From contig OY969938.1 in the NCBI GenBank assembly GCA_963704755.1, positions 1,680,001 to 1,712,000 of the forward strand: a stretch of 32,000 nucleotides of DNA, given 5' to 3'. Positions 1-18,430 of this stretch are shown piece after piece; the stretch's first letter is position 1, and the number at the start of each line of letters is the position of its first letter. The stretch is from an uncultured Chloroflexia bacterium. Its GTDB lineage: Bacteria > Chloroflexota > Anaerolineae > Anaerolineales > Anaerolineaceae. Both the position numbers and the translations under genes were made by a program. The notes beneath the pieces are model-generated. The model had not been told where the DNA came from, did not search any database, and saw only the letters and a program-made list of their open reading frames with translations.

Positions 1-243
1 GCTTCGCAAGACGTGATCGGCCGGCCGGGTGAGCGCGGCTGGATCCTCCCACCCGGGAACGTGGACCGGTTGACCGACTGCCTGAAAACCGTCCTGTCGT
101 CCGACATCGATTGGCCATCCATGCGCCGCCGCTGCCGTACTTATGCCGAACAATTCACCCTGGAAGATTGGGCCGACCGTATCGGTAAAATCTGTGCGGC
201 CCAATGGAAGATTCCTTACCAACAAGGCAAATTAAGCCAATGA
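1..243 (+). CDS. C-terminal fragment of a glycosyltransferase (GT-B/GT4-like); the gene starts upstream of the window
   Basis: Frame 1 is open from the window edge to TGA at 241-243. The tail (...GWILPPGNVDRLTDCL...YAEQFTLEDWADRI) looks like the end of GT4-type enzymes. Its stop overlaps the next ATG (ATGA at 240-243). Confidence 0.5.
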   Translation, partial: ASQDVIGRPGERGWILPPGNVDRLTDCLKTVLSSDIDWPSMRRRCRTYAEQFTLEDWADRIGKICAAQWKIPYQQGKLSQ

Positions 244-1682
244 GGACTTTAACTCCTGCTGTTGTAGAACAAACCCGGTTGAATGCTCACACGCGCCGCA
301 TCAGCCGGCCAGAAACTCCCTTAGCCGAGGTCTGGGCCAAACGCCTGGTCGTGTTTATGCTGGTAGCCTGGCCGTTGACCTTCGTTTTCGGCTTTACTCC
401 TATGCTCACCATCATGAATCTGGCCGGCTTGGCCCTGGCCATGATCGGCTTACGCTTGAAACCGGTCGGATTGATGGGCATCGCGGTCATGTGCACCCTC
501 GATACATTGACCCGCAACCTGATGGCCACCGGCGGCTTGTGGCGTTGGAACACCCTGAATTACTGGCTCGTATTGGTGATCCTGGTCAACCTGCCCTTCT
601 TGCTGCGTTTTACCGATATCCAGAGCCGCTTGCTGCAAGTCTTCCTGGTGCTGCTGACGGTCATGCTGTTGATCAGCTTTTACGTCCAATTGGGCATCCA
701 GGATATCCTGAACATTGGGGCGACTTTTGGGATTCTGTATTATTTCATTCGCGCCATCGAGGATAAAAAGGTCTTGTACTGGGTCGGCGTCGTATGCGGG
801 ACAACGGCCGCCCTGGGCGGGCTGGCGTTCTATTTCCAAATGGGCGGCCTGCCCTATATCGACCCCAATTCGCTGACCCAGTTGCCCTTGACCGGCCTGT
901 TCGCCATCTGTTTTGCCATGCCCCAGGCGGGCAACTTCAAACGCGGGCGTCTAGTCCTGCTGATGCTCACCAGCATTAACATCGTGTGGATATTCCTCAG
1001 CGGCAGCCGCGGCAGCCTGTTGACCTCATTCGTCTGCCTGGCCTTCCTGATCGTGCAAATGCGCAGCCTGACCTGGACCACCTTGTTGATCGGTGTGGGC
1101 CTGGTTTTGATCTTCTGGTTCTCGAATATCCTGCTCGACCAGCAGGCCTATGCCCTGCATCGCTTCTCGAAATTCCTGGATTCATCCTATACCCTGGCCC
1201 AACGCACCAGCGGCCGGTCGGTCATTTTTTGGACCGGCTGGCAAATCTTCCTGCAAAGGCCATTGGGCCTGGGCACCGGCAGCTTCCGCGGTGGTACGGG
1301 CTATCTTGACATCGTCGGCGGCAAGAGCCTGTCGGCCCATTCGGCCTGGATCAAGACCCTGGCCGAGAACGGTGCCGAAGGGTTCCTGCTGTTGGCATCC
1401 TGGGTGCTGTCTTTTGGCATCAGCGGGCTGCACCGTAAAGACCGCGATGTGACCTTGATCGGCTTGTTCACCACCGCGATCCTGATCGACGTATTCGTAA
1501 CCCAGGAGTTCCAGGGCAAAAACCTGTGGTTCCTGGTCGCCGGTTCAACCGCCATTCTCAACGCTGAACAATACAAAGGTCTGACCGACAAAGTCGGGCG
1601 GATCGCCAACCGGTACCGGCGGCGGGTCAAGCCGGCGCCTAAACCGAAAATCGAATTGGAGGCTGCTCCAGATGAAGGCTAG
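240..1682 (+). CDS. O-antigen ligase/polymerase family membrane protein (Wzy-like)
   Basis: The 480-aa product is polytopic and hydrophobic. It has the SGSRGSLL motif and a loop (LSAHSAWIKTLAENGAEGFLLL) typical of the Wzy_C/O-antigen ligase family. ATG at 240 was chosen over the ORF-track start at 204 because of the ATGA coupling to the upstream gene. Confidence 0.75.
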   Translation: MRTLTPAVVEQTRLNAHTRRISRPETPLAEVWAKRLVVFMLVAWPLTFVFGFTPMLTIMNLAGLALAMIGLRLKPVGLMGIAVMCTLDTLTRNLMATGGLWRWNTLNYWLVLVILVNLPFLLRFTDIQSRLLQVFLVLLTVMLLISFYVQLGIQDILNIGATFGILYYFIRAIEDKKVLYWVGVVCGTTAALGGLAFYFQMGGLPYIDPNSLTQLPLTGLFAICFAMPQAGNFKRGRLVLLMLTSINIVWIFLSGSRGSLLTSFVCLAFLIVQMRSLTWTTLLIGVGLVLIFWFSNILLDQQAYALHRFSKFLDSSYTLAQRTSGRSVIFWTGWQIFLQRPLGLGTGSFRGGTGYLDIVGGKSLSAHSAWIKTLAENGAEGFLLLASWVLSFGISGLHRKDRDVTLIGLFTTAILIDVFVTQEFQGKNLWFLVAGSTAILNAEQYKGLTDKVGRIANRYRRRVKPAPKPKIELEAAPDEG

Positions 1683-2859
1683 GCTGCGCGTGGCAATGAT
1701 CGCCGGTGAGCTGGGCCAGAGTGGCGCCGAAAAACAGCTCTATTACGTCGCCCAGGCGCTGATCAATGCCGGGGTGGACGTACGGGTATACTGCCTGACC
1801 CAGGGTGAGTATTTCGAGACGTACCTGCAAAAAGCTGGCGTCCCGGTGGAATGGGTGGGCCACGAGGGCCAGCCGTTCCTGCGCGTGGCGCGGATCTTGC
1901 AAAAGGTCCTGGCTTTCAGGCCTCATTTGATCTACTCAACTCACTTTTACACCAACCTGTATGCAGCCATCGCCGGCCGCCTGACCGGAACGCTCTCGAT
2001 CGGCAGTATCCGCAGCGATGGCCACCACGAGGTGAACGGCAACGGCCGCTGGGGCATGGCCCTGCTGAAAATGACCCACGTGCTGGTAGCTAACTCGCAT
2101 GGGGCGGCCCAGAATGCGGTTAAAAAAGGTGTCCGGGCAGACAACGTCTACACCCTGCCGAACGTGATCGACCTGGCCGCTTTCGACCGCAAGGCCGCGG
2201 CCGGCCCAAGTACCAAACCCCAACCGGGCAAGATTGCCATTGTGACCGTGGCCCGCCTGATCAAGGCCAAACGGCTGGATCGTTTTATTTCCGTGATCGC
2301 CGAGGCCCGGCGGACTTACCCGCAGATCTACGGCATTATTGCCGGCGACGGCCCGCTCAAGGATAACCTGGTGGCCCAGGCTCGCGGCCAGGGGCTGCTG
2401 CCAGACGGGATCCGCTTTTTAGGCTATTGCGACAACGTCCCGGCGCTGCTCAAAGGCAAAGATATTTTCGCGTTGACCTCGGATTACGAAGGCTTTCCGA
2501 ACGCGATCCTGGAAGCCATGGCAGCCGGGCTGCCGGTGGTCACTACCCCGGCCGGCGAAGCCGGTCGCATTGTGGTCAACCGCAAAAGCGGTTTCGTCGT
2601 CCCCCCCGAAAGCCTGCCGGCCCTGGTCCACAGTATTGTCGAGTTGAGCGGTTCGGCCGCTATGCGACAGGAGATGGGCCGCTACGGACGCCAATTGATA
2701 GAAGAACGCCACACCAACGCCAGCCTGGGGAACGCCATCCTGGAGCTCTTCCGCGAAATCGCCTTAAGGCGCAAAAACCAGCACTTGTTGAGCCTGCTCG
2801 ACGAGCTTCACACCGGCGAACCGGCCAATTCTGAACTTGAAGAGGCTATTCTTGGCTGA
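1672..2859 (+). CDS. Glycosyltransferase family 4 (GT-B, retaining type)
   Basis: The N-terminus (RVAMIAGELGQSGAEKQ) and the C-terminal E-x7-E region (SDYEGFPNAILEAMAAGLPVVTTPAGEA...GFVV) fit GT4. The start overlaps the previous stop by 11 nt. Confidence 0.85.
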   Translation: MKARLRVAMIAGELGQSGAEKQLYYVAQALINAGVDVRVYCLTQGEYFETYLQKAGVPVEWVGHEGQPFLRVARILQKVLAFRPHLIYSTHFYTNLYAAIAGRLTGTLSIGSIRSDGHHEVNGNGRWGMALLKMTHVLVANSHGAAQNAVKKGVRADNVYTLPNVIDLAAFDRKAAAGPSTKPQPGKIAIVTVARLIKAKRLDRFISVIAEARRTYPQIYGIIAGDGPLKDNLVAQARGQGLLPDGIRFLGYCDNVPALLKGKDIFALTSDYEGFPNAILEAMAAGLPVVTTPAGEAGRIVVNRKSGFVVPPESLPALVHSIVELSGSAAMRQEMGRYGRQLIEERHTNASLGNAILELFREIALRRKNQHLLSLLDELHTGEPANSELEEAILG

Positions 2860-3910
2860 TACGGTTATTCAACCCCGCCTGCTCCTGGCCGGGCCGATGT
2901 TGGGTCGCAACCAGGGCTGGGTCACCACCCAGGGCGAGATCCTGGCGGACCTGTTCGAGAACGCCGGGTATGCGGTGATGACCACCTCATCCATCCCCGG
3001 GCGAGTAGCACGCCTGGTCGATACGATCCGATCCCTGATCGCCTGGCGCAAGCAATACGACCTGGTCTTCCTCAACGTGTTCAGCGGGCCGGCTTTCGGC
3101 ATGGCCGAGATCACTTCGGCCCTGGCCAAACTGCTGAACAAGCCGCTGGTGATGGTCCTGCGGGGTGGCAATTTGCCCGAATTCGCCCTCGCGCATGGCG
3201 ACTGGATAAAACGGGTGCTCAGCCGGGCCGACCGGATCGTGGCGCCTTCGACCTTCCTGGCCGAGTTCGCCCACAACATGGGTCTGGATGTGACGGTTAT
3301 TCCCAACGTTTTACGTTTAGAAGAATACCCCTTCCGCCTGCGCGAAGGCGTCCAACCCAAAATTCTGTGGATGCGCACCTTCCATGAAATTTACCACCCC
3401 GAAATGGCCATCGAAGTGCTCGACCGCATCCGCCAATCTTTGCCGGACGCGACCCTGACGATGGCCGGCCAGGAAAAAGGCCTGCTGAACGCCGTCCGCG
3501 ACCTGGCCCACGAAAAAGGCCTGGACGCGTCGGTCCGTTTTGCCGGTTTCCTCGACCTGGAAGCCAAACGGCGCGAGTTTTCCGCCCACGATATCTTCAT
3601 CAACACCAACCGGGTGGATAACAGCCCGGTCAGCGTCCTGGAAGCGGCCGCCTTCGGTTTGCCGGTGGTGGCCACCCGGGTCGGCGGGGTGCCTTATTTG
3701 CTCGAACATGAGCAGACCGGGCTGCTGGTCGAGGACAGCGACGTCCCGGCCATGAGCGCGGAAGTGTTAAGGCTGCTGCGCGAACCGGGCCTGGCCGAGA
3801 AACTATCTCGTAACGGTAGGGTTTTGGCCGAATCCTGTTCGTGGGAAAAAGTAAAGCCCGCCTGGGAAGAAATCTTCGTCCAGGCCACAGATCATCATTT
3901 TGCCAGGTAA
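2837..3910 (+). CDS. Glycosyltransferase family 4
   Basis: The motif NSPVSVLEAAAFGLPVVATRVGGVPYLLEHEQTGLLV is the GT4 nucleotide-sugar binding region. The start is uncertain: TTG at 2837 or 2852, or ATG at 2897. The LLLAGPMLG N-terminus argues for an upstream non-ATG start. Confidence 0.8.
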   Translation: MKRLFLADTVIQPRLLLAGPMLGRNQGWVTTQGEILADLFENAGYAVMTTSSIPGRVARLVDTIRSLIAWRKQYDLVFLNVFSGPAFGMAEITSALAKLLNKPLVMVLRGGNLPEFALAHGDWIKRVLSRADRIVAPSTFLAEFAHNMGLDVTVIPNVLRLEEYPFRLREGVQPKILWMRTFHEIYHPEMAIEVLDRIRQSLPDATLTMAGQEKGLLNAVRDLAHEKGLDASVRFAGFLDLEAKRREFSAHDIFINTNRVDNSPVSVLEAAAFGLPVVATRVGGVPYLLEHEQTGLLVEDSDVPAMSAEVLRLLREPGLAEKLSRNGRVLAESCSWEKVKPAWEEIFVQATDHHFAR

Positions 3911-3940
3911 TCCACCCCGGAAGAATCGTCCCCTTTGACC

Positions 3941-5329
3941 ATGCTGACCTCCATTTATCGCAATTCCCCTTACCCGCTGCGGGTGCTGGCAGCCAGTGCA
4001 CGCGGATACATCTTGCGTGGCCAGCGCTACGGCCGCGATTGCGACGACCAGGTGGCTCAGGTTTTGGAACGCGACCGCTGGACGGCCGAACAATGGCAGT
4101 CCTGGACCGCTGAACGGCTGGCCTTTATCCTGGAGCGGGCCGTCACCCGGGTGCCATATTACCGCGAAATGTGGATCAACCGCAGGCTGCACGGCGAGGT
4201 AACCGATTGGACCCTCCTGGAAAACTGGCCGGTCCTGAGCAAAGAACGCCTGCGGGCCGACCCGCAAGCCTTCCTGGCCGACGATGTGGATGCCAGCAGC
4301 CTGATCGAGGAACATACCAGTGGCAGCAGCGGCAAACCACTCCGGTTATGGCGCAGCCGCGAGACCCAACGGACCTGGTACGGGTTGTTCGAAGCCCGTG
4401 TCCGCCAATGGAACAACGTCTCGCGCAGCGATCGCTGGGGCATCCTGGGCGGTCAGCTCATCACCCCGGTCGAACAGCGCCGGCCGCCCTTCTGGGTCTG
4501 GAACGCGGGGCTGAACCAGCTCTACCTGTCCACCTACCACATCTCTGCCGAAAACATCGCCGCTTACGCTCAGGCGCTGCGCCGCCACAAAATCGTCTAC
4601 CTGTTGGGCTACCCCTCTTCCCTGGCGCTGCTGGCTCACATGGCCCTCGACCAGGACCAGGTACTCCCCGCAATGAAAGTAATCCTGACCAACGCTGAAA
4701 TGCTGCTGCCCGGCCAGCGTAAAACCATCGAAAAAGCCTTCGGCTGCCGGGTGATCGATACTTACGGCATGTCCGAGCTAAGCGCGGCCGCCAGTGAATG
4801 TGAACACGGCGCGATGCATGTCTGGCCCGATGCCGGCCTGGTAGAGGTGTTCGCCGAAAATGGCGACCGGCCTCTCCCGGCCGGGCAAACCGGCCGGTTG
4901 ATTTGCACCGGCCTGATCAACGCCGATATGCCGCTCATTCGTTATGAAGTGGGCGACCGGGGTGCATTGGCCGATGGAACGACCGATTGCGCCTGCGGCC
5001 GGGGTCTGCCCGTGCTGGACCACATCGATGGCCGCCTGGACGACGTGTTGATCGCCACCGATGGCCGCCGGATCGGCCGGATGGATTCGGTATTCAAAGC
5101 GGACCTTGACGTGCGCGAAGCTCAAATCATCCAGGAAAGGTTGGGGACCATCCTGGTCAGGCTTGTACCCGGTTCTCTTTACGGCCAGCAGACCGCAAAT
5201 GCCATCATCCAGCGCATCCGCGAACGCCTGGGCCCGGTGGAAGTCAAACTGGAAACACTCGACGAAATCCCACGGGGGGCAAACGGAAAGTTCAAATCCG
5301 TAGTCAATCGGATGGACACCCACAGCTAA
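3941..5329 (+). CDS. CapK/PaaK-like adenylate-forming enzyme (phenylacetate-CoA ligase family / coenzyme F390 synthetase-like)
   Basis: It has the AMP-binding P-loop EEHTSGSSGKPLRLW, then DTYGMSE and a C-terminal GKFKSV lysine motif. The length (462 aa) and position in a capsule/EPS locus match CapK-type proteins. ATG at 3941 is preferred to TTG at 3935. Confidence 0.75.
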   Translation: MLTSIYRNSPYPLRVLAASARGYILRGQRYGRDCDDQVAQVLERDRWTAEQWQSWTAERLAFILERAVTRVPYYREMWINRRLHGEVTDWTLLENWPVLSKERLRADPQAFLADDVDASSLIEEHTSGSSGKPLRLWRSRETQRTWYGLFEARVRQWNNVSRSDRWGILGGQLITPVEQRRPPFWVWNAGLNQLYLSTYHISAENIAAYAQALRRHKIVYLLGYPSSLALLAHMALDQDQVLPAMKVILTNAEMLLPGQRKTIEKAFGCRVIDTYGMSELSAAASECEHGAMHVWPDAGLVEVFAENGDRPLPAGQTGRLICTGLINADMPLIRYEVGDRGALADGTTDCACGRGLPVLDHIDGRLDDVLIATDGRRIGRMDSVFKADLDVREAQIIQERLGTILVRLVPGSLYGQQTANAIIQRIRERLGPVEVKLETLDEIPRGANGKFKSVVNRMDTHS

Positions 5330-5355
5330 TCACATTAAACAATCTCAAGGAAACC

Positions 5356-6405
5356 ATGGCAGAAAAACATTCCTCTCCTCCGAATGCATCCTTGCCCTTT
5401 GTATCGGTAATTATGCCCGTGCGTAACGAAGGCGCTTATATCGAACGCAGCCTCGGCTCGGTCCTGGATCAGGATTACCCGGCCGGATTAATGGAAGTGA
5501 TCGTTGCCGACGGTCGTTCTGACGATGACACCCGCGAAGTTTTCGCCCGCCTGGCTGCCGGCCATCCCAACATGATCATGATCGATAACCCGGGCAAGTT
5601 TGTGGCGACCGGCCTGAACCGCTCTGTGCGGATCTCACGCGGTGAAATCATCGTGCGCGTGGATGGCCATTGCGAAATCGCCCCCGATTATGTCAGCAAC
5701 TGCGTCCGGCACCTCCTCGCCGGCGGCATCGCCGGGGTCGGCGGCCCGATGGAAACCATCGGCGAAACGGCAATCGCCCAGACCATCGCCGTGGCCATGA
5801 GCTCCAAGTTTGGGGTCGGCGGATCTTCTTTCCGCACGGTCAAGGACCGCAATATGTTCGTCAGTACTGTGCCCTTCCCGGCTTACTGGCGCAAAGATGT
5901 ATTAGCCGCCGGGCCATTCGACGAAGAGCTGGTCCGCAACCAGGATGACGAGTACAACTATCGCCTGGTCGCTTCTGGCAAAAAAATCTTGCTGGCCGCT
6001 GACGTCCATTCGCGCTATTACAGCCGCTCTTCGCTGAAATCATTATGGCGCCAGTATTACCAGTATGGGTTCTACAAGGTGCGCGTCATGCAAAAACATC
6101 CGCACCAGATGAGCATCCACCATTTCATGCCGGCCCTGCTGGTGGCCGGGTTGGCCGTTTCGATCCCATTAGCTTTGTTCAGCTCGATTGGCCACCTGAT
6201 GCTGGCGGTCATAATCGGGTTGTATTTGATCTCTCGATTTAAGCGGGTCCATCATCGCGGCGATCCAACAAGAGCATTCCTCCATCGCATTGCTTCCCGT
6301 GGTTTATCCAATCCTGCACCTCAGCTATGGCTCAGGTTTCTGTATTGGATTAATCCGTTTCGTTGGCTTGTGGCACCAGGGGAAGCCATCTCTTCAGACG
6401 GCTAA
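5356..6405 (+). CDS. Glycosyltransferase family 2 (ExoA-like), C-terminus probably frameshifted
   Basis: GT2 signatures are present: VSVIMPVRNEGAYIERSL, VADGRSDDDT, VDGH and QDDEYNYRL. An AAGGA RBS precedes the ATG. After about 6240 the called frame becomes Arg/Pro-rich. Frame 2 (6230-6424) instead encodes a hydrophobic tail (IALLPVVYPILHLSYGSGFCIGLIRF). See findings. Confidence 0.8.
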   Translation: MAEKHSSPPNASLPFVSVIMPVRNEGAYIERSLGSVLDQDYPAGLMEVIVADGRSDDDTREVFARLAAGHPNMIMIDNPGKFVATGLNRSVRISRGEIIVRVDGHCEIAPDYVSNCVRHLLAGGIAGVGGPMETIGETAIAQTIAVAMSSKFGVGGSSFRTVKDRNMFVSTVPFPAYWRKDVLAAGPFDEELVRNQDDEYNYRLVASGKKILLAADVHSRYYSRSSLKSLWRQYYQYGFYKVRVMQKHPHQMSIHHFMPALLVAGLAVSIPLALFSSIGHLMLAVIIGLYLISRFKRVHHRGDPTRAFLHRIASRGLSNPAPQLWLRFLYWINPFRWLVAPGEAISSDG

Positions 6406-6469
6406 AAACCCAGACCAACGTTGAATGAAATTTGCTTCCTGGGAAATGAATTGAAAGGGGAAAGGAAGT

Positions 6470-8485
6470 ATGAATAACGTGCTGGAAAAAAATATTACGC
6501 AAAAAGAGAGTTCCAAGGTCATGAACTGGAAAGCGATAGCGACATGGTTCAACAATGTCGTACGCCGGCTGCTTGACATTGCGATTGCGTTTTTCGGTAT
6601 CCTGTTCCTGTCACCCTTCTTCCTCGTCGTGATCTTCCTGATCAAACGTGATTCGCCAGGGCCGATATTCTACAAGGGTCGCCGGGCGGGGAAAAACGGC
6701 AAAGATTTCAATATCCTGAAATTTCGTACTATGTACGAAAACAAGGCCAGTTATAGCGGCGCCAAGGTGACCGCCGGTGACGATCCGCGCATCACACCCA
6801 TCGGCAAGTTCCTGCGTGAAACCAAGCTGAACGAGCTGCCGCAGCTATGGAACGTGCTGGTCGGCGAAATGAGCATGGTCGGCCCGCGGCCCGAGGACCC
6901 CGAAATCGCGCGGGCATGGCCGGAGGATGTCCGCAAGGAAATCCTCTCGGTCCAGCCGGGCGTAACCAGCCCGGCCTCGGTGCTGTACCGCCATGAAGAA
7001 ACCATGCTCCAATCGCGCAACTTGATGGATCGCTACCTGATGGACATCCTGCCCAGCAAACTGCGCCTCGACCAGCTTTACATCCGCCAGCGTACCGTTC
7101 TCAGCGACCTGGACGTCATGTTCTGGACCTCGGTAGCGCTGTTCCCGCGGATGAAAAACTTCAACATCCCGGAACATTTGCTTTACCGCGGGCCGATGAG
7201 CCTGTTTGTGAACCGCTACATCAGTTGGTTCACCATGGACTTTCTGGTCTCGCTGGCCTCGATCACCCTGGCCGGGGTCCTGCGCCGGTTAAGCTCCCCG
7301 CTGGACGTTGGCGTCGAGGTCTCGGCCGCCCTGGCCCTGCTCATCGCCCTCATGTTCAGCCTGCTCAACACGGTTATGGGCATCAACCGCATCAATTGGA
7401 GCCGGGCTTCTGCCGGTGAAGCCATCGATATCGGCATCTCCACCGTCATCGTCACCCTGGTCCTGTTCCTGGTCAACCTGATCGTACCCGGCGGCGCTTT
7501 CCTGCCGCCCATCGTCCTGGTCACCTCGGGGATGTTCTCCTTTGCCGGGTTCATCATTATTCGCTACCGCGGCCGGCTGATCTCCGGCATCGCTTCCAGG
7601 TGGCTCGGCGTGCGGCACGCCAAAATGGATCTCCTGGGTGAACCGGTCCTGGTCATCGGCGGGGGCGAGACCGCCCGGTTTGCCAACTGGCTGCTGCGCA
7701 ACGGCCCGCTGGCCCAGGCCTTCAACATCATCGGCATCGTGGACGACGACCCGACCAAAATTGGCAGCCAGATGGATGGGCTGCGCGTCATCGGCCGCAC
7801 CGATGAGATTCCTCATATCATCCGCAAATTCGATATCGGGTTGATCCTGTTTGCCATCACCGAGATCCAGCCGTCCGAATCCGAGCGGATCCTGGACATG
7901 TGCAAATCGTCGAGCACCCGGGTGATCATGGTGCCGGATATCATGGACAGCCTGCGCGCCCACTTCCCCCGCACCGAAGCCGAGCGAGATGGCCTGGTCG
8001 ATAAGATGGTCCAGAATTCCACCCAGGACCGCCTGACCGGGGTCATGAACCGCCAGACTTTTCTGCACTCCGTCGAACACGAACTGCCGCGGTCCATCCG
8101 TTACGGCCATGCCTGTTCACTCATTCTCTTCAACGTGGACTACAGTTGGCCGGATGGCGCCGTCCGCGCCAGTTCGGTGACTGCCCAGGTGCTGCAAGGG
8201 GTAGCAGAACGGGCCAGCAAGAACATCCGCGGCATCGACCAGCTTGGCCGCTACGACGAGAATGCTTTTGCCATCCTCTTACCCGAAACTGACCTGGAAT
8301 CGGCCAACCTGGTCGCAGAACGCCTGCTGAAGAACCTGACTTTCACCCCCATCTGGACCGATCGCGGCCCGTTGAACATCACCGTCTCTTTGGGTGTGGT
8401 CAGCCAGGACGACGACAAGAAAGATGCCGCCAGTCTGCTGAACAATGCTGAAAAGGCAATGAAAGTTGCCAGCATGGTCGATTGA
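6470..8485 (+). CDS. Polyprenyl-phosphate phosphoglycosyl transferase (Bac_transf) fused to a 4-TM block, a Rossmann-like domain and a degenerate GGDEF domain
   Basis: The N-terminal re-entrant helix [25 protein letters not shown] is followed by GPIFYKGRR...[33 protein letters not shown] and MSMVGPRPE. Four hydrophobic segments follow, then [12 protein letters not shown]...[13 protein letters not shown]...VIGRTDEI. The C-terminus ([12 protein letters not shown]...[21 protein letters not shown]...ITVSLGVV) has a GGDEF fold. A GGAAAGGAAG RBS lies upstream. Confidence 0.85.
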
Positions 8486-8506
8486 GCCGGTAAATAAATC
8501 GCGTTT

Positions 8507-8565
8507 GTAACTGCTCAGCCATCCCAGAAAGGATCGTCCCCTTCGGAACCTGCCTGAGCAGTCAC
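8507..8565. repeat. Short 'empty' copy of the GTAACTGCTCAG...CTGAGCAGTCAC scaffold (no long hairpin core)
   Basis: The sequence is GTAACTGCTCAGCCATCCCAGAAAGGATCGTCCCCTTCGGAACCTGCCTGAGCAGTCAC. The first 9 and last 9 scaffold bases pair (ACTGCTCAG/CTGAGCAGT). Both flanks align with the element at 20529-20639. Confidence 0.65.
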
Positions 8566-8592
8566 TCAAGTTTCAAGAAACAGGGACCCATC

Positions 8593-9585
8593 ATGGATGA
8601 ATTAAAAGGAAAGAAAGTCCTCGTTACCGGCGCTGGCGGTTTCATCGGAAGCCACCTGACCGAGATGCTGGTCCGCAGCGGGGCCCAGGTGCGCGCCTTC
8701 GTTCGCTATAATTCCCGCGGCGACAGCGGCTTACTGCGGCTGATCGACCCGGACATTCGCCAGGAGCTGGAAATTATCGCCGGCGATCTGCGCGACGACC
8801 AGGCCATCGAGCAGGCCGTATCCGGGACGGCGATCGTGTTCCACCTGGGCGCGTTGATCTCCATCCCTTACTCCTATCTGCACCCGCGCGAGGTAGCCGA
8901 AACGAACTTGATGGGCACACTGAACGTCCTGGCTGCCTGCCGGACCTACGGGGTGGAACGGCTGGTCCACACTTCGACCAGCGAGGTTTATGGAACGGCC
9001 CGGTACGTGCCCATCGACGAGGCGCACCCCCTGCAGGGGCAGTCGCCTTATTCCGCCAGCAAGATCGGGGCCGATAAACTGGTCGAAAGCTTTTACTGCA
9101 CCTATGAACTGCCGGCAGTAACCGTACGGCCCTTCAATACCTTTGGGCCACGCCAGTCGGCCCGGGCGGTCATTCCAACTATCATTACTCAGGCTCTCAC
9201 CGGGCCTCAAATCAAACTCGGCAGCCTGGATACGCTGCGAGATTTCACCTATGTAGAAGACACTGCTGCCGGTTTTGTGCGCGCTGCCCTGGCAAAGGGG
9301 GTTGAGGGTGGCGTGTTCAACCTGGGCACCGGACGGGAAGTGACCATCGGCGAGGTATGCGACCTGATCGCCGGCTGCGTCGGCCACCCGGTGACCATCC
9401 TTCAGGATGAAAACCGCCTGCGCCCACAACGCTCGGAAGTCAGGCGGCTGCTCTCGAACAATAAGCTGGCCAGAGAAAAACTGGGCTGGCAGCCCCAGGT
9501 GGACCTGGAAGAGGGGATCGAACGCACCATTGACTGGATCGGCCAGCACCTGGAGCTCTTCAAAGTCGGCCAGTACGAATTCTGA
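8593..9585 (+). CDS. NAD-dependent NDP-sugar 4,6-dehydratase/epimerase (extended SDR, LegB-like)
   Basis: It has the GAGGFIGSHL Rossmann motif, TSTSEVYG, the catalytic SPYSASK and RPFNTFGPRQSARAVIPTIITQ, at 330 aa. Confidence 0.85.
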   Translation: MDELKGKKVLVTGAGGFIGSHLTEMLVRSGAQVRAFVRYNSRGDSGLLRLIDPDIRQELEIIAGDLRDDQAIEQAVSGTAIVFHLGALISIPYSYLHPREVAETNLMGTLNVLAACRTYGVERLVHTSTSEVYGTARYVPIDEAHPLQGQSPYSASKIGADKLVESFYCTYELPAVTVRPFNTFGPRQSARAVIPTIITQALTGPQIKLGSLDTLRDFTYVEDTAAGFVRAALAKGVEGGVFNLGTGREVTIGEVCDLIAGCVGHPVTILQDENRLRPQRSEVRRLLSNNKLAREKLGWQPQVDLEEGIERTIDWIGQHLELFKVGQYEF

Positions 9586-9767
9586 CCCTGGCCTATAAAA
9601 ATTCGATTATGTGGCTGAACGCCGCCGCAGAAGAAGATCCTCCCCAGGACCCTTCTCTATGGATAACACAGCCACGAATTGGTTGATTTTATGTGAAAGA
9701 ATCCTTCGGTTTTAGGGGGGATTCATACACACATTTCATTCAACTTCCTTAGGAATTGGAGGAAATC

Positions 9768-10508
9768 ATGAAAGCCGTAATTCTGGCCGGAGGGAAAGGA
9801 ACGCGCCTTTCGCCGTACACAAAAATCTTACCGAAACCGCTCATGCCCATCGGGGAAATGCCGGTCCTGGAAGTGCTTATTCACCAACTGCAAGCTCAGG
9901 GTGTGGACGAAATTATCCTCACCGTAGGTCACCTGGCCGAGATCATGCGCGCCTTCTTTGGCGATGGCAGCCAGTTTGGCCTGAAGATCAGGTACAGCTA
10001 CGAAGATCATCCCCTGGGCACAGCCGGGCCGCTGGCCCTGGTCGATGGCCTGGACGACACCTTCCTGGTGCTCAACGGTGATGTGCTGACCGACCTGAAC
10101 TTTACCGACCTGGTCGAATTTCATAAACGACAGGGCGCTATCGCCACCATCGCCATGCACCAACGGCAGGTCAAGATCGACCTGGGCGTCATCCTGTGCA
10201 ATGGCGGGCCAAAGGTGGTCGGCTACATCGAAAAGCCTACCTACGATTACCAGGTCAGCATGGGCATTTACGTATTCGAGCCAAGCCTGCTCAAATTTAT
10301 CGAGAAAGATCGCTATCTGGACTTTCCAAACCTGGTCCACAAGCTGCTCGGCGAGGCCGAGAAAGTGGTCGGGTACCTGTTCGACGGCTACTGGCAAGAC
10401 CTGGGCCGTCCGGACGACTACGAACAGGCCACCCAGGATTTCAACACGATGCGGGAACGTTTCCTGCCGGAGCACAAATATGACGAACTGGCGAATCCCA
10501 TTAGCTGA
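9768..10508 (+). CDS. Sugar-1-phosphate nucleotidyltransferase
   Basis: It has the N-terminal signature MKAVILAGGKGTRLSPYTKILPKPLMPI, plus LGTAGPL and VLNGDVL. A GGAGG RBS sits at 9758-9762, so ATG at 9768 is preferred over the ORF-track TTG at 9756. Confidence 0.85.
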   Translation: MKAVILAGGKGTRLSPYTKILPKPLMPIGEMPVLEVLIHQLQAQGVDEIILTVGHLAEIMRAFFGDGSQFGLKIRYSYEDHPLGTAGPLALVDGLDDTFLVLNGDVLTDLNFTDLVEFHKRQGAIATIAMHQRQVKIDLGVILCNGGPKVVGYIEKPTYDYQVSMGIYVFEPSLLKFIEKDRYLDFPNLVHKLLGEAEKVVGYLFDGYWQDLGRPDDYEQATQDFNTMRERFLPEHKYDELANPIS

Positions 10509-11643
10509 CCTGGATTTGGGCAGTGAAGAAAAAGCTGCCGTGATGGACGTCTTGGACCGGCGTTGGTTGACCATGGGCGAAGTGACCCAGGCCTTCGAGC
10601 AAGAATTCGCCGATTTCATCGGCGCCAAACACGCCCTGGCCGTAGGTAATTGCACCGAAGCCCTGCACATGGCCTGCCTGGCAGCCGATATCGGCCCTGG
10701 AGATGAGGTCATCGTCCCATCGCTCACTTTTGTAGCCACGGCTAACGCCGTGGCCTATACCGGTGCGCTGCCGGTCTTCGCCGAGGTAAAATCGGGCCAG
10801 GATTTGACCATTTCAGTCGAATCGATCGAATCCAGGATCACCCCGCAGACCCGCGCGATCATTCCAATGCACTACGGGGGCTACCTCTGCCATATGGAAG
10901 AGATCAACGCCCTGGCTAAAGCGCATGGCCTGGTGGTCATCGAAGATGCCGCCCATGCCCCCGGCACCTCGCTGGACGGAAAAATGGCCGGCACCTGGGG
11001 TGATCTGGGCTGTTTCAGCTTCTTTTCCAACAAAAACATGACCACCGGCGAAGGCGGTATGGTCACCACCAACAATGATGCCTACGTGGACAAACTGCGC
11101 TGGCTGCGCTCGCACGGCATGACCTCCCTGACCTGGGACCGCCATAACGGGCACGCCTGGAGCTACGACGTGGTCTTTCCCGGCTACAACTACCGCATGG
11201 ACGAGATGCACGCCGCCCTGGGGAGAGTACAACTGCAAAAACTGGCCCACAACAATGCCCGTCGGGCTGCCCTGGTAGCCGTCTATCGCCAGATCCTGTT
11301 ACAAGTTGCGCCGAACCTGGAAATCCCATTCATGGACCACCCAGGCATTTCGGCTTACCACCTGATGCCCGTGCTGCTGCCAGCCGGCCGCGACCGGACG
11401 CAGGTGATGGAATGCATGAAAGAACACGGCATCCAGACCAGCATCCATTACCCGCCGATCCACACTTTCAGCCATTATCAAAAATGGCTGGGAGAGCGGA
11501 TTGGACCTATGCCTGTCACCGAAGACATCGCTGCCCGCGAATTGACCCTGCCCCTGTACCCCGGCATGACCAATTCGGACGTCGAGGCCGTGGCCGATGC
11601 GCTGAACGATGCCCTGCACAGCCCCGCTGCGGGGAAAATCTAA
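10480..11643 (+). CDS. DegT/DnrJ/EryC1/StrS-family PLP-dependent sugar aminotransferase
   Basis: From ATG at 10480 the product has IPLADLDLGSEEKAAVMDVLDRRWLTMGE, GDEVIVPSLTFVATANAV and FSFFSNKNMTTGEGG (PLP-lysine). The ORF-track start at 10201 is an out-of-frame overlap with the previous gene. The real start overlaps it by 29 nt. Confidence 0.85.
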   Translation: MTNWRIPLADLDLGSEEKAAVMDVLDRRWLTMGEVTQAFEQEFADFIGAKHALAVGNCTEALHMACLAADIGPGDEVIVPSLTFVATANAVAYTGALPVFAEVKSGQDLTISVESIESRITPQTRAIIPMHYGGYLCHMEEINALAKAHGLVVIEDAAHAPGTSLDGKMAGTWGDLGCFSFFSNKNMTTGEGGMVTTNNDAYVDKLRWLRSHGMTSLTWDRHNGHAWSYDVVFPGYNYRMDEMHAALGRVQLQKLAHNNARRAALVAVYRQILLQVAPNLEIPFMDHPGISAYHLMPVLLPAGRDRTQVMECMKEHGIQTSIHYPPIHTFSHYQKWLGERIGPMPVTEDIAARELTLPLYPGMTNSDVEAVADALNDALHSPAAGKI

Positions 11644-11656
11644 CCGGTTTCATCAT

Positions 11657-11687
11657 CCCGGTTCCCGTACAGAATACGGGAACCGGG
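11657..11687 (+). terminator. Stem-loop downstream of the aminotransferase gene
   Basis: CCCGGTTCCCGTA-cagaa-TACGGGAACCGGG is a perfect 13-bp stem 14 nt after the stop codon. No clear T-tract follows, so its function is uncertain. Confidence 0.4.
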
Positions 11688-11858
11688 AACCATCTGCTTA
11701 ATTTGTGATCCCACTGAATCGGATCGGTAACCCCGGAAAGAATCAAGCGCCTGGAATTTGAGTGGGGCTCTCCGCAAACGCCAGGCCGGTTATCGAAGGT
11801 ATTTTTCAGCGGGAGTCGTTTGTATTTATCGTATTTTTGATCCTGAACAGAGGTTTCC

Positions 11859-13703
11859 ATGCAACCAAAAGACTATCTCAATCTCATTAAACGTTGGGTC
11901 TGGCTGATCGCCATTGGCGTGGTTTTGGGGGCGCTCGGCGGTTTTATATTTAGCAAACTCCAAACCCCGCTCTATCAGGCCAGTACAAAAGTACTGGTGC
12001 AGCTCTCGCCAGAATCGCAGGTTTCGAACGTAACCAACCAGAACGATACCCAACTTGCCCAAACCTTCACCGAACTGATTGTGACCCGCCCGGTGCTGGA
12101 TGCAACCTCCGAAAAGCTTGGCTACAACGTCAGCGCAGGCCAGATCCAGGTCCAATCGGGAACCTCCTCCCAGATGATCAAAGTGACCATTCAGGACCAG
12201 GATCCCCAGCACGCCGCTGACATCGCCAATACCCTGGTGACTACCTTCCTGGCTCAGAATTCACTGCTGCAAAACAGCCAGTATTCCAGTGCGGAAGAAA
12301 GCCTGCAGGCCCAAATTTCTCAGGTGGAGGGCCAAATCGCCGACCTGCAGAAACAACTGGCCGACGCCGCCACCCAATCTCAGGAACAGCGTATCCAGGC
12401 TGTGACCGACATCATGACCAACCTGCAAAATGAGATCGCCCAGGTCCAACAGGATATCATCACCCTCCAGTACAAGACCGACCTGGTGCCAAGCGTCACC
12501 AACGCCGGCCTGCCGATTATGGCCACCCCTACCCTGACCCTGGACGAGATGATCAAGATCAACCACGACCAGGAGCACCTGAGCGAACTAAAGGACCTGC
12601 TGGGTATTTATCAAAACATCTACGTCGATCTTTCCTACGCGGCCGAAACCGGCGGTGGGACCGGAGGAACCACCAACGAACAGATCCAATCCGCCCTGGA
12701 TCTCTATCAGCAGATCTATTCCAATTTACTGACCAACCAGGAAAGCATCCGCCTGGCCGGTCTTCAATCCACACCCAACCTGGTCCAGGTTGAAGAGGCC
12801 CTCCCCAACGGCAACCCGATCAGCCCCAAGACGCTTTACAACATCTTGATCGGCCTGGTCGTTGGCCTGGTGTTGGCCGGTGCGGTTGTATTCATCCGCG
12901 AATACCTGGACGAATCGTTGCGCGACGCCAACATGGTCCAGGATGTGCTGGGCCTGCCGGTCCTCGGGTACATCAGCGAAATACCCAACCATAACGGCGA
13001 TAATGATCTCCCCTATGTAAAGTCGGAGCCGCGATCGCCTATCACAGAAGCCTTCCGTTCCTTGCGAAACAACCTGGAGTTTTCCTCGATTGACGACCCG
13101 CTCAAGTCGATTTTGGTCACCAGCTCGACCATCGGTGAGGGTAAAACCACCCTGGCCGTCAACCTGGCCATGGTCATGGCCCAATCTGAAAGAAAAACCG
13201 TGCTGGTGGATACCGATCTGCGCCGGCCCCAGGTGCACGACAAACTGCATATCCACAACCAGTTAGGCCTGAGCAATCTTCTGGTTGGCACATCCACCCT
13301 GGAAGAGGCGGTCCAATACATCGAACCCGAACACCTGGCCGTCCTCACCAGCGGCAGGCTGCCCCCCAACCCGGCCGAGGTGTTGGGCTCTCAAGCCATG
13401 GCTAATGTTTTGCAGAAACTGGAAGAGGAATTCGATACCGTCATCCTGGACGGGGTGCCTTTCCTTCTGGCCGATGCTTCTCCGCTGGCAGCCCGCGTGG
13501 ATGGCGTGCTGATCGTTGTCCGCCCACGCTTCACCTCCCGCACGGTGGCCCTCGAAATGGTCGAACAGCTCGACCGGGTCAAGGCCAGGGTCATCGGGGT
13601 TGCCCTTAACCGTATCCGCGAAAGTGGCGCATCTTACTATCGCGCCTTAACCGGCTACTCGAATTACGCTTATTTCAAGGAAGAGAATGCCCCAAAGGAG
13701 TAG
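11859..13703 (+). CDS. Polysaccharide co-polymerase (Wzz) fused to a BY-kinase tyrosine autokinase
   Basis: An N-terminal TM and Wzz-like coiled-coil periplasmic region are followed by a second TM. The kinase part has Walker A SSTIGEGKTTLAVNLA, Walker A' VLVDTDLRRP and Walker B VILDGVP. The C-terminal Tyr cluster is SYYRALTGYSNYAYF. Confidence 0.85.
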   Translation: MQPKDYLNLIKRWVWLIAIGVVLGALGGFIFSKLQTPLYQASTKVLVQLSPESQVSNVTNQNDTQLAQTFTELIVTRPVLDATSEKLGYNVSAGQIQVQSGTSSQMIKVTIQDQDPQHAADIANTLVTTFLAQNSLLQNSQYSSAEESLQAQISQVEGQIADLQKQLADAATQSQEQRIQAVTDIMTNLQNEIAQVQQDIITLQYKTDLVPSVTNAGLPIMATPTLTLDEMIKINHDQEHLSELKDLLGIYQNIYVDLSYAAETGGGTGGTTNEQIQSALDLYQQIYSNLLTNQESIRLAGLQSTPNLVQVEEALPNGNPISPKTLYNILIGLVVGLVLAGAVVFIREYLDESLRDANMVQDVLGLPVLGYISEIPNHNGDNDLPYVKSEPRSPITEAFRSLRNNLEFSSIDDPLKSILVTSSTIGEGKTTLAVNLAMVMAQSERKTVLVDTDLRRPQVHDKLHIHNQLGLSNLLVGTSTLEEAVQYIEPEHLAVLTSGRLPPNPAEVLGSQAMANVLQKLEEEFDTVILDGVPFLLADASPLAARVDGVLIVVRPRFTSRTVALEMVEQLDRVKARVIGVALNRIRESGASYYRALTGYSNYAYFKEENAPKE

Positions 13704-13706
13704 GCT

Positions 13707-14678
13707 ATGAGCGAAACCATATGCCCGTTCCTGGGAATGATAGAGGATCGGGAAACCGCCCTATCTTTTCCTTCCGACGGGAATTATTGCTATAAAGCCG
13801 AGCCCCTCTCGGTAGTCAATATCGACCACCAGCGAAATTTTTGCCTGTGCGCTGGGCATACCGAATGCCCCGTTTTCAAACGCAGCGAAATCGGCCCGCT
13901 GCCGGACGACCTGTCCACCGAAATTGCTCCACCGGCGCCCAAAGCGCCGGGTAACAAAAAATTCTTTATCCCGGCGATTATTTTAATTTTCGCGATTGTG
14001 GCCGTGCTGACTCTGCCAAGGGCCACCGCCTCGATCGTCGCGGCCAAACAAGCCGCCCAAAACGCACAGGCTACATCGGATTACAATTCGCAAATGGTTC
14101 TGTTAGGCACCGAAGAGATCCCGGTGACCGATGGCACCGCCTTCATTAACGCTTCCATCAGCGATATCACCCCGAACCCTACCTGGGCAGCCTGTACCCC
14201 ACCGCCGTATTGGAAAACTTATGTGGTCAACGACACCGATTCATTGGTGCGCTTGAGCCTGCTCTTTCGGGTTTCGGTCGATGACCTGAAACAGGCTAAC
14301 TGTATGGAAGGCCAGGCCCTGGTCCGCCCCGGTGAGGTCATCTACATCCCCGGCGTCACCCCCACAGTGACCCCCACCAGTACGCCGCTGTTCACCGCAA
14401 CCCGCACCCGCCGGCCGACTAGCTTGCCCACCTGGACTAACCCTCCCCGTCAAAGCAACCCCGGCCAGCCCCATCCGGCCAATACGGCCGTAAAACCTAC
14501 GAATACCAGCGTTCCGCCGACAGCCAAGCCCACAATCCAGCCCACATCCAAACCTCAACCCACATCCACACCTTTGCCGCCGCCGCCGACACCCCCGCCA
14601 ACATCGATACCTCCTACGCCAGTACCACCGCCAACCGATGTACCGCCGCCAACCGATGTACCGGCTTCTACTCCATAA
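13707..14678 (+). CDS. Membrane protein with an N-terminal Cys-rich domain, one TM, a LysM domain and a Pro/Thr-rich tail
   Basis: The N-terminus reads CPFLG...NYCYK...NFCLCAGHTECPVF. The TM is FFIPAIILIFAIVAVLTL. The LysM-like segment is YVVNDTDSLVRLSLLFRVSVDDLKQANCM...GEVIYIP. The last ~100 aa are PT-rich, including the tandem PPTDVPPPTDVP. The start lies 4 nt after the kinase stop. Confidence 0.7.
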   Translation: MSETICPFLGMIEDRETALSFPSDGNYCYKAEPLSVVNIDHQRNFCLCAGHTECPVFKRSEIGPLPDDLSTEIAPPAPKAPGNKKFFIPAIILIFAIVAVLTLPRATASIVAAKQAAQNAQATSDYNSQMVLLGTEEIPVTDGTAFINASISDITPNPTWAACTPPPYWKTYVVNDTDSLVRLSLLFRVSVDDLKQANCMEGQALVRPGEVIYIPGVTPTVTPTSTPLFTATRTRRPTSLPTWTNPPRQSNPGQPHPANTAVKPTNTSVPPTAKPTIQPTSKPQPTSTPLPPPPTPPPTSIPPTPVPPPTDVPPPTDVPASTP

Positions 14679-15009
14679 GGTGGTGGATAGCCACATTTCT
14701 TTATAGAACGCTCTACATTTCATCGAACATCAATTTTCAATGCATCAGCGCGGAACGAATTCCGCCCGGTCACTCCCAGGGGAGGCCGGGCGGAATCCTT
14801 CGAGACCTGGCCCAGATTAAACTGGGTAAAAAAAATATTGGGTAGCACCTGATCACCGTTCGAACATCCACACGAGTAGCCGCCTATTAAGGTAAAGAGC
14901 CGTGATACCAGGGGGTGTTTACCGTAAAACGAAGGTAATTGACCGACATGCCAGCCATCTATTGCAAGATTCCCGTATTAAAGCGGGAGAAAAACTGGGG
15001 AGGAAGAGA

Positions 15010-18000: not shown

Positions 18001-18261
18001 GATTTCGACCATATCGTCTACGCGATTTATGACCCCACCCTGCCCGGCCCGGTCGAAAACCAGTTTGTGGAAATTGGCACGGCTTCCACAGCGCCTTATA
18101 CCGTGAATCTGCCGGTCGACCGGCTGGTGATCGGCGGCTATACCCAGGTGTACGTCTTCACCGTGGACAAAGAAGGGCACCGTTCGCCGTATAATCCTCA
18201 GAATGGGATCAATCTTCTGCGTCCCAGCGCTTACGTTTTCATCCCAATCGTTCATAAATGA
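15010..18261 (+). CDS. Secreted surface protein with 8 tandem ~114-aa Calx-beta-like beta-sandwich repeats and a distinct C-terminal domain
   Basis: ATG at 15010 has a GGGGAGGAAG RBS and a signal peptide (MNLKKNWSNILLCVCLIGMLLGGSPLIVQA/DS). The repeats span 15160-17901. The recurring pattern is DNDTAGY.IT...GL.T.E.GGTATF.V.L.S.PS..V.V...S.D..EGT......L.F...NW...Q.VT.TG.DD...DG...Y. Confidence 0.8.
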   Translation: MNLKKNWSNILLCVCLIGMLLGGSPLIVQADSNLHAMIPKSAAVNGTQAIGDILVSPESGTTTETGGTFVFNISLGSPPTDTVTIDLYSSNTGEGTVSPSSVVLDNTNYSDGVDVTVTGVNDAIAADVGYTIVTDPAVSNDTDYNGNPADVAMTNLNVDDTAGYAITNATGLTTTEGSGTATFDVALTSEPSSATTVSVSSNDTTEGKVTTPAGGQLSFDSTNWSDPQPVTVTGQDDFIIDGDQPYTVSVGPASGAAEYQSLSDSSVSLTNTDNDTAGIIVSPTSELTTDENGGTATFNIHLTSAPSSDVTIGLISSNTSEGTVPSSVTLNSSNWQAGVTVTVTGVADHTIDGNIGYTIVTGAASSTDGNYGGLNPADVSVTNDNTDSANIIVSPTSGLVTTEAGGTASFNIKLASIPSADVTVGLSSDDTTEGTVPSQAVLNSTNWSTGVDVTVTGQDDFVADGDVVYHIVTANSTSGDTNYVGINPPDVTVTNQDDDTAGYTITPTTGLVTSENGTTATFTIRLNSQPTSNVTVSFASSKTTEGTVSPASVTFTPEAGSVSWDTPQIITLTGVDDTPAVADGNQPYTIVTTVSSTDTTYNSLDPADVSATNQDNDVAGYVFTNATSLTTSKSGTSVTFHVALATQPTVDTIVAVTSTNTAEGTITAPVSGLLTFTATNWATAQDITVKGVDDLIADGDITYPIHIGPATGAPEYVSVSTASVNVTNQDNDAAGYVITNATGLTTSEAGGTATFDVALSSQPSVDTTVNVTSQNLDEGTISIPADGKLTFTTANWATPQPVTITGVDDFYADGTVSYSVKIGPASGATEYASILSNTTVDVNNTDNDTAGYVITEASGLSTTEGGGTATFKVALSSQPTTAPLTVNISSSDTTEGTVTIPTNGHLTFTADNWNTPQTVTIKGADDTLNDGTVAYSINVGTASGASEYASVPVSHVSINNLDNEIFWVNPVGNRGSMLVTTGSITLQATPSNSVDMADFDHIVYAIYDPTLPGPVENQFVEIGTASTAPYTVNLPVDRLVIGGYTQVYVFTVDKEGHRSPYNPQNGINLLRPSAYVFIPIVHK

Positions 18262-18282
18262 CCCGGCATCGATAAAATTATT

Positions 18283-18323
18283 AAAAAATATCCGCGGAGG
18301 CAAAGCCTCCGCGGATATTTTTT
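18283..18323 (+). terminator. Intrinsic (bidirectional-type) terminator after the repeat-protein gene
   Basis: AAAAAATATCCGCGGAGG-caaag-CCTCCGCGGATATTTTTT is a perfect 18-bp arm pair. It has an A-tract on the 5' side and a T-tract on the 3' side, and lies 22 nt after the stop. Confidence 0.8.
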
Positions 18324-18330
18324 TAAGTCA

Positions 18331-18430
18331 CATACCTGCTCAGCTACCGCAAAAAGAAAGGGGTGTTTTTATTGTTTTTCGCGTGCAAAGCACGTGAAAA
18401 ACAATAAAAACACCCTCAAATAAAGTATTG
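18331..18430. repeat. Nested palindromic element (decayed scaffold plus 26-bp hairpin core)
   Basis: The left flank ACCTGCTCAGCTACCGCAAAAAGAAAG is followed by the hairpin GGGTGTTTTTATTGTTTTTCGCGTGC-aaa-GCACGTGAAAAACAATAAAAACACCC at 18361-18415 (25 of 26 positions pair; the mismatch is G.T). It is related to the elements at 20529 and 20656. Confidence 0.7.

Follow-up and report, generated by a model that had tools for sequence, protein, structure and literature searches.

A phosphoglycosyl transferase-like protein with a degenerate GGDEF domain in Anaerolineae: a predicted c-di-GMP receptor fused to a candidate priming enzyme of polysaccharide biosynthesis

Introduction

Degenerate GGDEF domains that act as receptors of cyclic di-GMP (c-di-GMP) through their inhibitory site (I-site) are known from PopA, the GIL domain of BcsE and Listeria PssE. 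The PelD protein of the Pseudomonas aeruginosa Pel system is a degenerate-GGDEF receptor that controls an exopolysaccharide machine (PMC12802240). In this work, we analyzed a 32,000-nt stretch of DNA from an uncultured bacterium of the Anaerolineaceae (assembly GCA_963704755.1, contig OY969938.1, positions 1,680,001 to 1,712,000; hereafter, the window), in which one open reading frame (ORF) encodes a phosphoglycosyl transferase (PGT)-like domain and a degenerate GGDEF domain in a single polypeptide, termed here PGT-GGDEF. Like PelD, this protein is predicted to be anchored in the membrane, carries a dead GGDEF fold with an RxxD motif and a second Arg, and is predicted to control a polysaccharide machine. 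Unlike PelD, PopA, BcsE and PssE, which are separate subunits in synthase-dependent systems, the putative receptor is fused in cis to the candidate priming enzyme of a gene cluster of the Wzy/bacterial tyrosine kinase (BY-kinase) type. From comparative sequence analysis we consider it probable that an I-site receptor of c-di-GMP controls the priming enzyme of this cluster in cis.

Only for synthase-dependent systems is control by c-di-GMP understood in detail. Post-translational control of Wzx/Wzy-dependent pathways is described as poorly understood (PMC12802240, PMC10942596). In Myxococcus xanthus, the response regulator EpsW directly activates the PGT EpsZ of a Wzx/Wzy pathway (PMC12802240), and in Caulobacter crescentus c-di-GMP acts post-translationally on HfsJ, a glycosyltransferase at an early step of a Wzy-type adhesin pathway (PMC11481889). 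The EpsW-EpsZ pair resembles PGT-GGDEF in bringing a signalling domain to an initiating PGT, but EpsW is a separate protein and its signal is phosphorylation rather than c-di-GMP. HfsJ, unlike PGT-GGDEF, is a soluble glycosyltransferase that acts after the PGT and has neither a GGDEF nor a PilZ module. The domain of unknown function (DUF) of WbaP and other large PGTs (Lg-PGTs) is a nucleotide-sensing regulatory and dimerization domain, and PGTs are expected control points (PMC10942596).

We found no description of a PGT-GGDEF, Bac_transf+GGDEF or PGT-PilZ protein in a literature search that did not extend to the 2021 survey of the superfamily of monotopic PGTs (monoPGTs); the 2024 PNAS paper on monoPGT annotation mentions neither GGDEF, diguanylate, permutation nor Chloroflexi. 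The architecture itself is not rare, being found in 81 clusters at 90% identity and in at least 8 full-length clusters at 50% identity. The database records of these relatives are labelled either 'sugar transferase' or 'diguanylate cyclase'.

Domain architecture of PGT-GGDEF

The order of domains that had been read from the sequence alone (Bac_transf, four transmembrane (TM) helices, a Rossmann-like domain, GGDEF) was confirmed by Pfam, by hydropathy and by an AlphaFold model; the coordinates of all elements are given in Table 1. The model is an alignment-based monomer (mean pLDDT 84.4, pTM 0.67), a single-sequence model (pLDDT 40) having been discarded. The ATG start of the ORF is preceded by a purine-rich, Shine-Dalgarno-like stretch, GGGGAAAGGAAG.

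In the catalytic part, Foldseek searches against the PDB matched PglC (8E37) with a template modeling score (TM-score) of 0.80 and also recovered WbaP (8T53). The S48-P49 break in the re-entrant membrane helix is equivalent to S23-P24 of PglC, and P49 is invariant among relatives. The NCBIfam models of EPS/WcaJ/WbaP-type PGTs match residues ~24-225 with their C-terminal halves only, whereas GGDEF models match residues 510-667. The CoA_binding_3 (PF13727) match of Pfam covers residues 304-488 (E 1e-5, 26.1 bits versus a cut-off of 25). Loops rich in Lys and Arg place the N-terminus, catalytic domain, DUF and GGDEF domain all in the cytoplasm in the predicted topology. PGT-GGDEF thus shares with WbaP the bundle of four TM helices (TM4), the PF13727-type DUF, the Bac_transf domain and the cytoplasmic location of the soluble parts, and differs from it in that the catalytic domain comes first, the sequence of the DUF is nearer to that of the WbpM/PglF type (3NKL), the catalytic dyad is Asn-Glu and a C-terminal sensor is added.

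The GGDEF fold noted in the initial annotation was recovered by Pfam (E 2.1e-20, with a start at nt 8021 against the ~8020 noted earlier) and by Foldseek, which matched the c-di-GMP-bound GGDEF domain 3IGN (TM-score 0.86, root-mean-square deviation (rmsd) 2.1 A, 33% identity). Among aligned GGDEF-bearing relatives, Pfam assigns both Bac_transf and GGDEF to 68 out of 68 and PF13727 to 64; since the combination is shared by all 68, it is no chance pattern. As a separate observation, full-length PleD, WspR and DgcR align with the model over ~310-350 columns, so that the DUF and GGDEF domains together topologically resemble a REC-GGDEF tandem; the rmsd of ~10-25 A indicates that the orientation of the domains differs.

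Degenerate active site and conserved I-site

Residues of the I-site and of the active site (A-site) were assigned by a gapless phmmer alignment to PleD. The signature previously placed at 8228-8269 consists of RGID (8228-8239) and DENAF (8255-8269), which fall without gaps on RAID-LPCRY-GGEEF of PleD. The A-site was rightly taken as dead and its substrate motif as lost: H340 and D344 of PleD are replaced by S568 and A572, and the other ligands are replaced as well (D327 by N555, N335 by G563, K442 by S668), while the chain stops before the equivalent of R446.

The homologue search identified 81 clusters (at the 90% identity level) that contain all three domains and are 44-76% identical; the few named members belong to Thermanaerothrix daxensis, Anaerolineaceae and 'Chloroflexi'. 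The RxxD motif, reported as intact in the initial annotation, is also retained by these relatives: R587 is present in 80 of the 81, and D590, R618 and R541 in all of them. No relative has GG[DE]EF, and the commonest residue at each of these five positions occurs in only 20-44 of the 81 sequences. Ranked by column entropy among the 150 columns of the domain, the I-site residues are at places 4, 6, 10 and 11, and the A-site positions at places 29-136. Six remoter clusters (50% identity level) that bear the fusion keep RxxD and the downstream Arg, and their A-sites are degenerate (GENEL, ESGYI, GENDF, GGCEF, GENSF and GIYGF). The I-site is thus conserved while the A-site drifts, and therefore selection appears to have preserved the allosteric site for c-di-GMP while the catalytic one was freed from constraint. 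With the active site lost, the I-site could act only as a sensor. The domain has the features of a degenerate-GGDEF receptor, namely a GGDEF fold with an inactive A-site, RxxD five residues ahead of the signature position and a second Arg.

The equivalents of R359, D362, R390 and R313 and TM-scores of up to 0.86 to c-di-GMP-bound structures link this domain to PleD, WspR and DgcR. These proteins, however, are active cyclases in which the I-site provides product inhibition, whereas the active site is gone in PGT-GGDEF. JGI and NCBI records do carry the label 'diguanylate cyclase (GGDEF)-like protein', which would suit an active cyclase that makes c-di-GMP locally. Given that GG[DE]EF is absent from all 81 relatives, that metal, base and phosphate ligands are replaced and that the C-terminus falls short of the R446 equivalent, we regard such activity as next to impossible; DENAF, the lost ligands and the truncated C-terminus contradict it.

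Another ligand, such as GTP, (p)ppGpp or a different cyclic dinucleotide, might bind at the A-site remnant or at the I-site and tie priming to nucleotide pools. A degenerate GGDEF domain that senses GTP is known in Caulobacter PdeA, and structures of PleD with (p)ppGpp exist (9G85/9G86). The DUF, which neighbours the GGDEF domain here, binds uridine nucleotides in WbaP (PMC10942596). The conserved residues, however, are those of the I-site, whereas the base and phosphate residues of the A-site (N335, D344, K442 and R446 in PleD) are lost and variable, which makes another ligand very unlikely. GTP sensing at the A-site in particular is ruled out by the loss of the base and phosphate ligands.

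Other signal-input modules on the same scaffold

The part of PGT-GGDEF that precedes the GGDEF domain (PGT, TM4 and DUF) forms a scaffold that is also found with other signalling domains. PilZ is a dedicated c-di-GMP receptor domain. It occurs at the C-terminus of a 627-aa protein with an Asp-Glu dyad (P0323; L014 1334-3217), which has intact RxxxR (528) and NxSxxG (555) motifs, and, also intact, at the N-terminus of a 692-aa protein with an Asn-Glu dyad (P0406) that is 31% identical to P0323. A PglF-like dehydratase (P0325) carries a C-terminal PilZ as well, and the motif pattern RxxxR...(D/N)xSxxG is intact in these fusions. In a further protein with an Asn-Glu dyad (P0188; L015 1155-3185), an intact REC domain occupies the C-terminal slot that holds GGDEF in PGT-GGDEF, in parallel to EpsW. 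Signal-input modules, two of them predicted c-di-GMP receptors, have thus been joined to this scaffold repeatedly, as judged from domain assignments.

The repeated recruitment of PilZ provides independent comparative support for control by c-di-GMP. The control in cis that had been predicted in the initial annotation gains from this, as it does from the invariant I-site beside a drifting A-site, and may now be regarded as a better-founded prediction. One alternative is that the GGDEF domain is a structural remnant without nucleotide binding, which aids dimerization or folding or provides a docking site for a partner such as the BY-kinase; its conserved Arg and Asp would then serve protein contacts. 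Some degenerate GGDEF domains, for example that of CsrD, do not bind c-di-GMP, and the enzyme can work without the domain, as indicated by a sister clade that lacks GGDEF (Promineifilum, Ardenticatenaceae) and whose tails are short or coiled-coil. This explanation is nevertheless rather unlikely in our estimate, as the very four residues with which PleD contacts c-di-GMP rank within the top 11 of the 150 columns in conservation while their neighbours drift, and as PilZ is fused to the PGT-TM4-DUF scaffold in other lineages.

Asn in place of the catalytic Asp

The dyad Asp of monoPGTs attacks the nucleoside diphosphate (NDP)-sugar to form a covalent phosphoglycosyl-enzyme intermediate (bioRxiv 10.1101/2023.09.19.558431). 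In PGT-GGDEF the dyad is N121-E122: the segment 'tklNELpql' stands opposite 'tslDELpql' of the solved WbaP structure, that is, KLNELPQL versus the canonical LDELPQL. All 109 aligned relatives and each of the 13 loci examined have N121 and E122. K84 (K59 in PglC), R116 (R88) and the PRP motif are likewise invariant. PGT-GGDEF thus has the profile match, the fold, the re-entrant helix and the essential Lys and Arg of monoPGTs and lacks their Asp-Glu dyad. The catalytic Asp being replaced by Asn, canonical covalent catalysis is in doubt, and the earlier description of the protein as an ordinary initiating PGT, which overlooked N121, is not safe.

Among representatives of the scaffold, Asn-Glu and Asp-Glu dyads are nearly equal in number (54 versus 42 in one set and 50 versus 46 in another). 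Asn-Glu is found with an intact fused dehydratase (P0296), and Asp-Glu with GGDEF (P0177). The substitution therefore marks a large sub-clade and is linked to neither the order of domains nor the presence of the sensor. We also considered E142, in the invariant 'GPRPE', as a relocated nucleophile; as clade-specific compensation it was ruled out, PRPE being present in Asp-Glu members as well.

The invariant Asn in 109 sequences, together with a TIGR03025 score of 264.8 that lies below the trusted cut-off of 295.55, would suit a pseudo-enzyme or scaffold, which binds undecaprenyl phosphate and/or an NDP-sugar and acts as a c-di-GMP-responsive organizer or regulator of other enzymes encoded in the cluster (for example, the neighbouring or fused GT2), with no transfer of sugar phosphate; a PGT encoded elsewhere would then prime synthesis. 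However, K84, R116, E122, the PRP motif and many other residues are invariant, which indicates strong purifying selection, and the 13 loci hold no alternative PGT within +-10 kb. The Asn-Glu dyad also occurs together with an intact fused PglF-type dehydratase (P0296), which would supply the substrate, and the gene is tightly linked to sugar-nucleotide genes. On these grounds a pseudo-enzyme is unlikely. It is a possible, though still doubtful, suggestion from sequence comparison that the members of the Asn clade, which comprises at least 50 clusters at 50% identity, are the sole local priming enzymes and work by direct, non-covalent transfer, with their scaffold serving as a hub for signal inputs (GGDEF, PilZ and REC). 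The invariant Asn at the position of the nucleophile calls into question the assumption that the covalent Asp mechanism is universal among monoPGTs.

Polysaccharide gene cluster

All genes from 204 to 18261 are co-directional. From position 204 onwards, genes for Wzy_C, two glycosyltransferases of the GT4 type, a CapK-like adenylate-forming enzyme and a GT2 glycosyltransferase precede the PGT-GGDEF gene, which is followed by genes for a LegB-like 4,6-dehydratase, a nucleotidyltransferase, an aminotransferase, a BY-kinase, a LysM protein and a large Calx-beta protein. The Wzy-type polymerase and the polysaccharide co-polymerase (PCP)/BY-kinase of Wzx/Wzy clusters are thus both present. Three other genomes, that of T. 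daxensis and two metagenomic ones, have the same order from GT2 through LysM, with protein identities as low as 44%. In a further metagenomic genome the three sugar-nucleotide genes are missing and the PGT carries GT2 as an N-terminal fusion. The same fusion to PGT-GGDEF is found in several relatives of ~1005-1055 aa (for example, L013 10001-13036), which points to functional coupling of the two proteins.

The dehydratase, nucleotidyltransferase and aminotransferase together suggest that the priming sugar would be an NDP-4-amino-4,6-dideoxy-hexose, possibly GDP- rather than UDP-linked. The longest ORF of the aminotransferase (10201-11643) overlaps the nucleotidyltransferase gene by ~300 nt; as residue 106 is the first in the Pfam match, translation probably starts near 10489-10510. 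Neither a second Bac_transf gene nor a separate GGDEF gene was found within +-10 kb in the 13 loci, and the split arrangement, in which GGDEF-less relatives would have a GGDEF gene of their own beside them, was not seen in any of these 13.

Proposed mechanism of regulation

In the mechanism that we propose, PGT-GGDEF would be the lipid-carrier priming enzyme (PGT-like) of a Wzy/BY-kinase-type polysaccharide cluster conserved in Anaerolineae. Cytoplasmic c-di-GMP would bind the I-site formed by R587xxD590 and R618, with a contribution of R541. In the expected dimer, as in PleD, an intercalated c-di-GMP dimer may connect the I-site of one GGDEF domain with R541 of its partner. The stalk helix would relay the resulting change to the DUF and the catalytic domain, and the rate at which repeat units are initiated would be set in this way. 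By analogy with PelD, BcsA and Alg44, our guess is that activation at high c-di-GMP would be the likelier direction.

Several observations weigh against this mechanism. With Asn in place of the dyad Asp, the activity under control may be something other than canonical PGT catalysis. The most distant member, P0177, has Glu instead of R541. GGDEF domains as a whole commonly have RxxD and the R390-equivalent Arg, and part of the conservation of these residues could thus be inherited or structural. No Wzx-type flippase was found among the scanned ORFs of the window or in the flanks of the related loci L009-L013, although its gene may be located beyond these regions, and the window contains no gene of a diguanylate cyclase or c-di-GMP phosphodiesterase and no detectable c-di-GMP riboswitch. 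Finally, the genes of the PilZ and REC variants are complete, yet lie on short metagenomic contigs.

If c-di-GMP control of PGT-GGDEF is real, the protein offers a single-polypeptide system in which to test how the consumption of scarce undecaprenyl phosphate is gated by a second messenger, and the PilZ and REC variants suggest a general design principle rather than a curiosity. Anaerolineae are abundant filamentous bacteria of anaerobic digesters and activated sludge, where the matrix affects granulation and bulking.

Origin of the domain order and of the GGDEF fusion

In the initial annotation, PGT-GGDEF was described as a PGT in permuted order. The reversed order holds, but the protein does not appear to be a rearranged WbaP. 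The segment that follows the catalytic domain has no sequence match to WbaP, and among solved structures its closest relative is 3NKL, which represents the N-terminal domain of a WbpM-type dehydratase. The family profile was searched against 1.84 billion representative proteins, and Pfam domains were called on the representatives. Many proteins of 800-940 aa (P0226, P0272, P0277, P0296, P0303 and others) have the order Bac_transf, TM4, PF13727, Polysacc_synt_2, and fusions of a PGT with a PglF/WbpM/CapD-type dehydratase are widespread (Nitrospira, Nitrosomonas nitrosa, Acidoferrales). PGT-GGDEF shows the order Bac_transf, TM4, PF13727, with GGDEF in place of the C-terminal Polysacc_synt_2. It shares with the PGT::PglF-like fusions the N-terminal scaffold of 500 residues, its domain order and the 'GPRPE' motif, whereas those fusions end in an SDR-type (short-chain dehydrogenase/reductase) dehydratase and mostly have Asp-Glu. 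The architecture thus seems better explained as a small PGT placed ahead of a PglF/WbpM-type TM4-DUF module, with GGDEF in the dehydratase slot. Circular permutation of WbaP is disfavoured as the source of the order by the 3NKL match and by the PGT::dehydratase fusions. Dodge et al. described it as puzzling that the TM4-DUF module is common to PglF-like dehydratases and Lg-PGTs (PMC10942596).

A scan of contigs with PGT-GGDEF as the query retrieved only GGDEF-less relatives. In a neighbor-joining tree of the shared residues 25-498, 72 GGDEF-bearing and 37 GGDEF-less sequences are cleanly separated, which indicates that GGDEF was gained (or lost) once and then retained. Most hits of a search with the GGDEF region alone were ordinary cyclases of the GAF-, PAS- and REC-GGDEF kinds (31-44% identity), and none was a further PGT fusion.

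Other features of the window

Table 1. Coordinates of the PGT-GGDEF gene, its domains and key residues, and of neighboring genes in the window
Feature	Position	Strand	Evidence or remark
Complete ORF: PGT-like domain, TM4, Rossmann DUF, degenerate GGDEF	6470..8485	+	671 aa + stop
Bac_transf (monoPGT-like) domain, residues 32-224	6563..7141	+	Pfam E 4.7e-54; Foldseek
Re-entrant membrane helix, residues 33-58, S48-P49 break	6566..6643	+	hydropathy, model
N121-E122 at position of monoPGT catalytic Asp-Glu dyad	6830..6835	+	alignment to WbaP/PglC
Four TM helices, residues ~242-366	7193..7567	+	hydropathy and AlphaFold model
Rossmann-like DUF (PF13727 type), residues ~390-498, GGGETA...IVDDDP	7637..7963	+	Pfam; 3NKL E 9.7e-4; 64/68 relatives
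Linker ('stalk') helix from DUF to GGDEF, residues 503-518	7976..8023	+	DSSP on model
GGDEF fold, residues 518-667, catalytically degenerate	8021..8470	+	Pfam E 2.1e-20; 3IGN match
R541, equivalent to PleD R313 (secondary I-site)	8090..8092	+	invariant within core family
RGID, RxxD of primary I-site; R587/D590 equivalent to PleD R359-D362	8228..8239	+	residues 587-590
DENAF in place of GG(D/E)EF, on PleD G368-F372	8255..8269	+	residues 596-600; all five positions variable in family
R618, equivalent to PleD R390 (I-site)	8321..8323	+	81/81 conserved
Wzy_C-type polymerase/ligase, head of cluster	204..1682	+	Pfam
GT2 glycosyltransferase 5' of PGT-GGDEF gene, C-terminal hydrophobic segments	5356..6405	+	
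LegB-like NAD-dependent sugar-nucleotide 4,6-dehydratase	8593..9585	+	TIGR04180 414.8 bits, below 475 cut-off
Sugar-1-phosphate nucleotidyltransferase	9756..10508	+	best match a mannose-1-P guanylyltransferase model
PseC/LegC-like (DegT) aminotransferase, start approximate	10489..11643	+	
Wzz/GNVR + P-loop BY-kinase co-polymerase, C-terminal Tyr cluster	11859..13703	+	TIGR01007 152.9 bits, above 108 cut-off

No RNA elements were detected when the window was scanned for types other than the riboswitch. A 351-aa ORF at 22323-23378 (-) has no Pfam match. The G+C content dips to 0.46 (versus ~0.57) at 20001-21000, and a gene of an rve-family integrase/transposase is located at 23460-24602, which together suggest an insertion element between the cluster and dnaA. 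The dnaA gene is complete (DnaA_N, Bac_DnaA and Bac_DnaA_C domains) at 28556-29905 (-), and its presence in the window places the cluster within ~20 kb of the probable replication origin.

The region 14902-20119 encodes a 1119-aa Calx-beta protein and, in divergent orientation, a right-handed beta-helix (pectate-lyase-like) protein. In related loci the same neighbourhood encodes Cadherin/Big_9 and Pel9A-like beta-helix proteins. The Calx-beta and beta-helix proteins may be components of the matrix or of polysaccharide processing.

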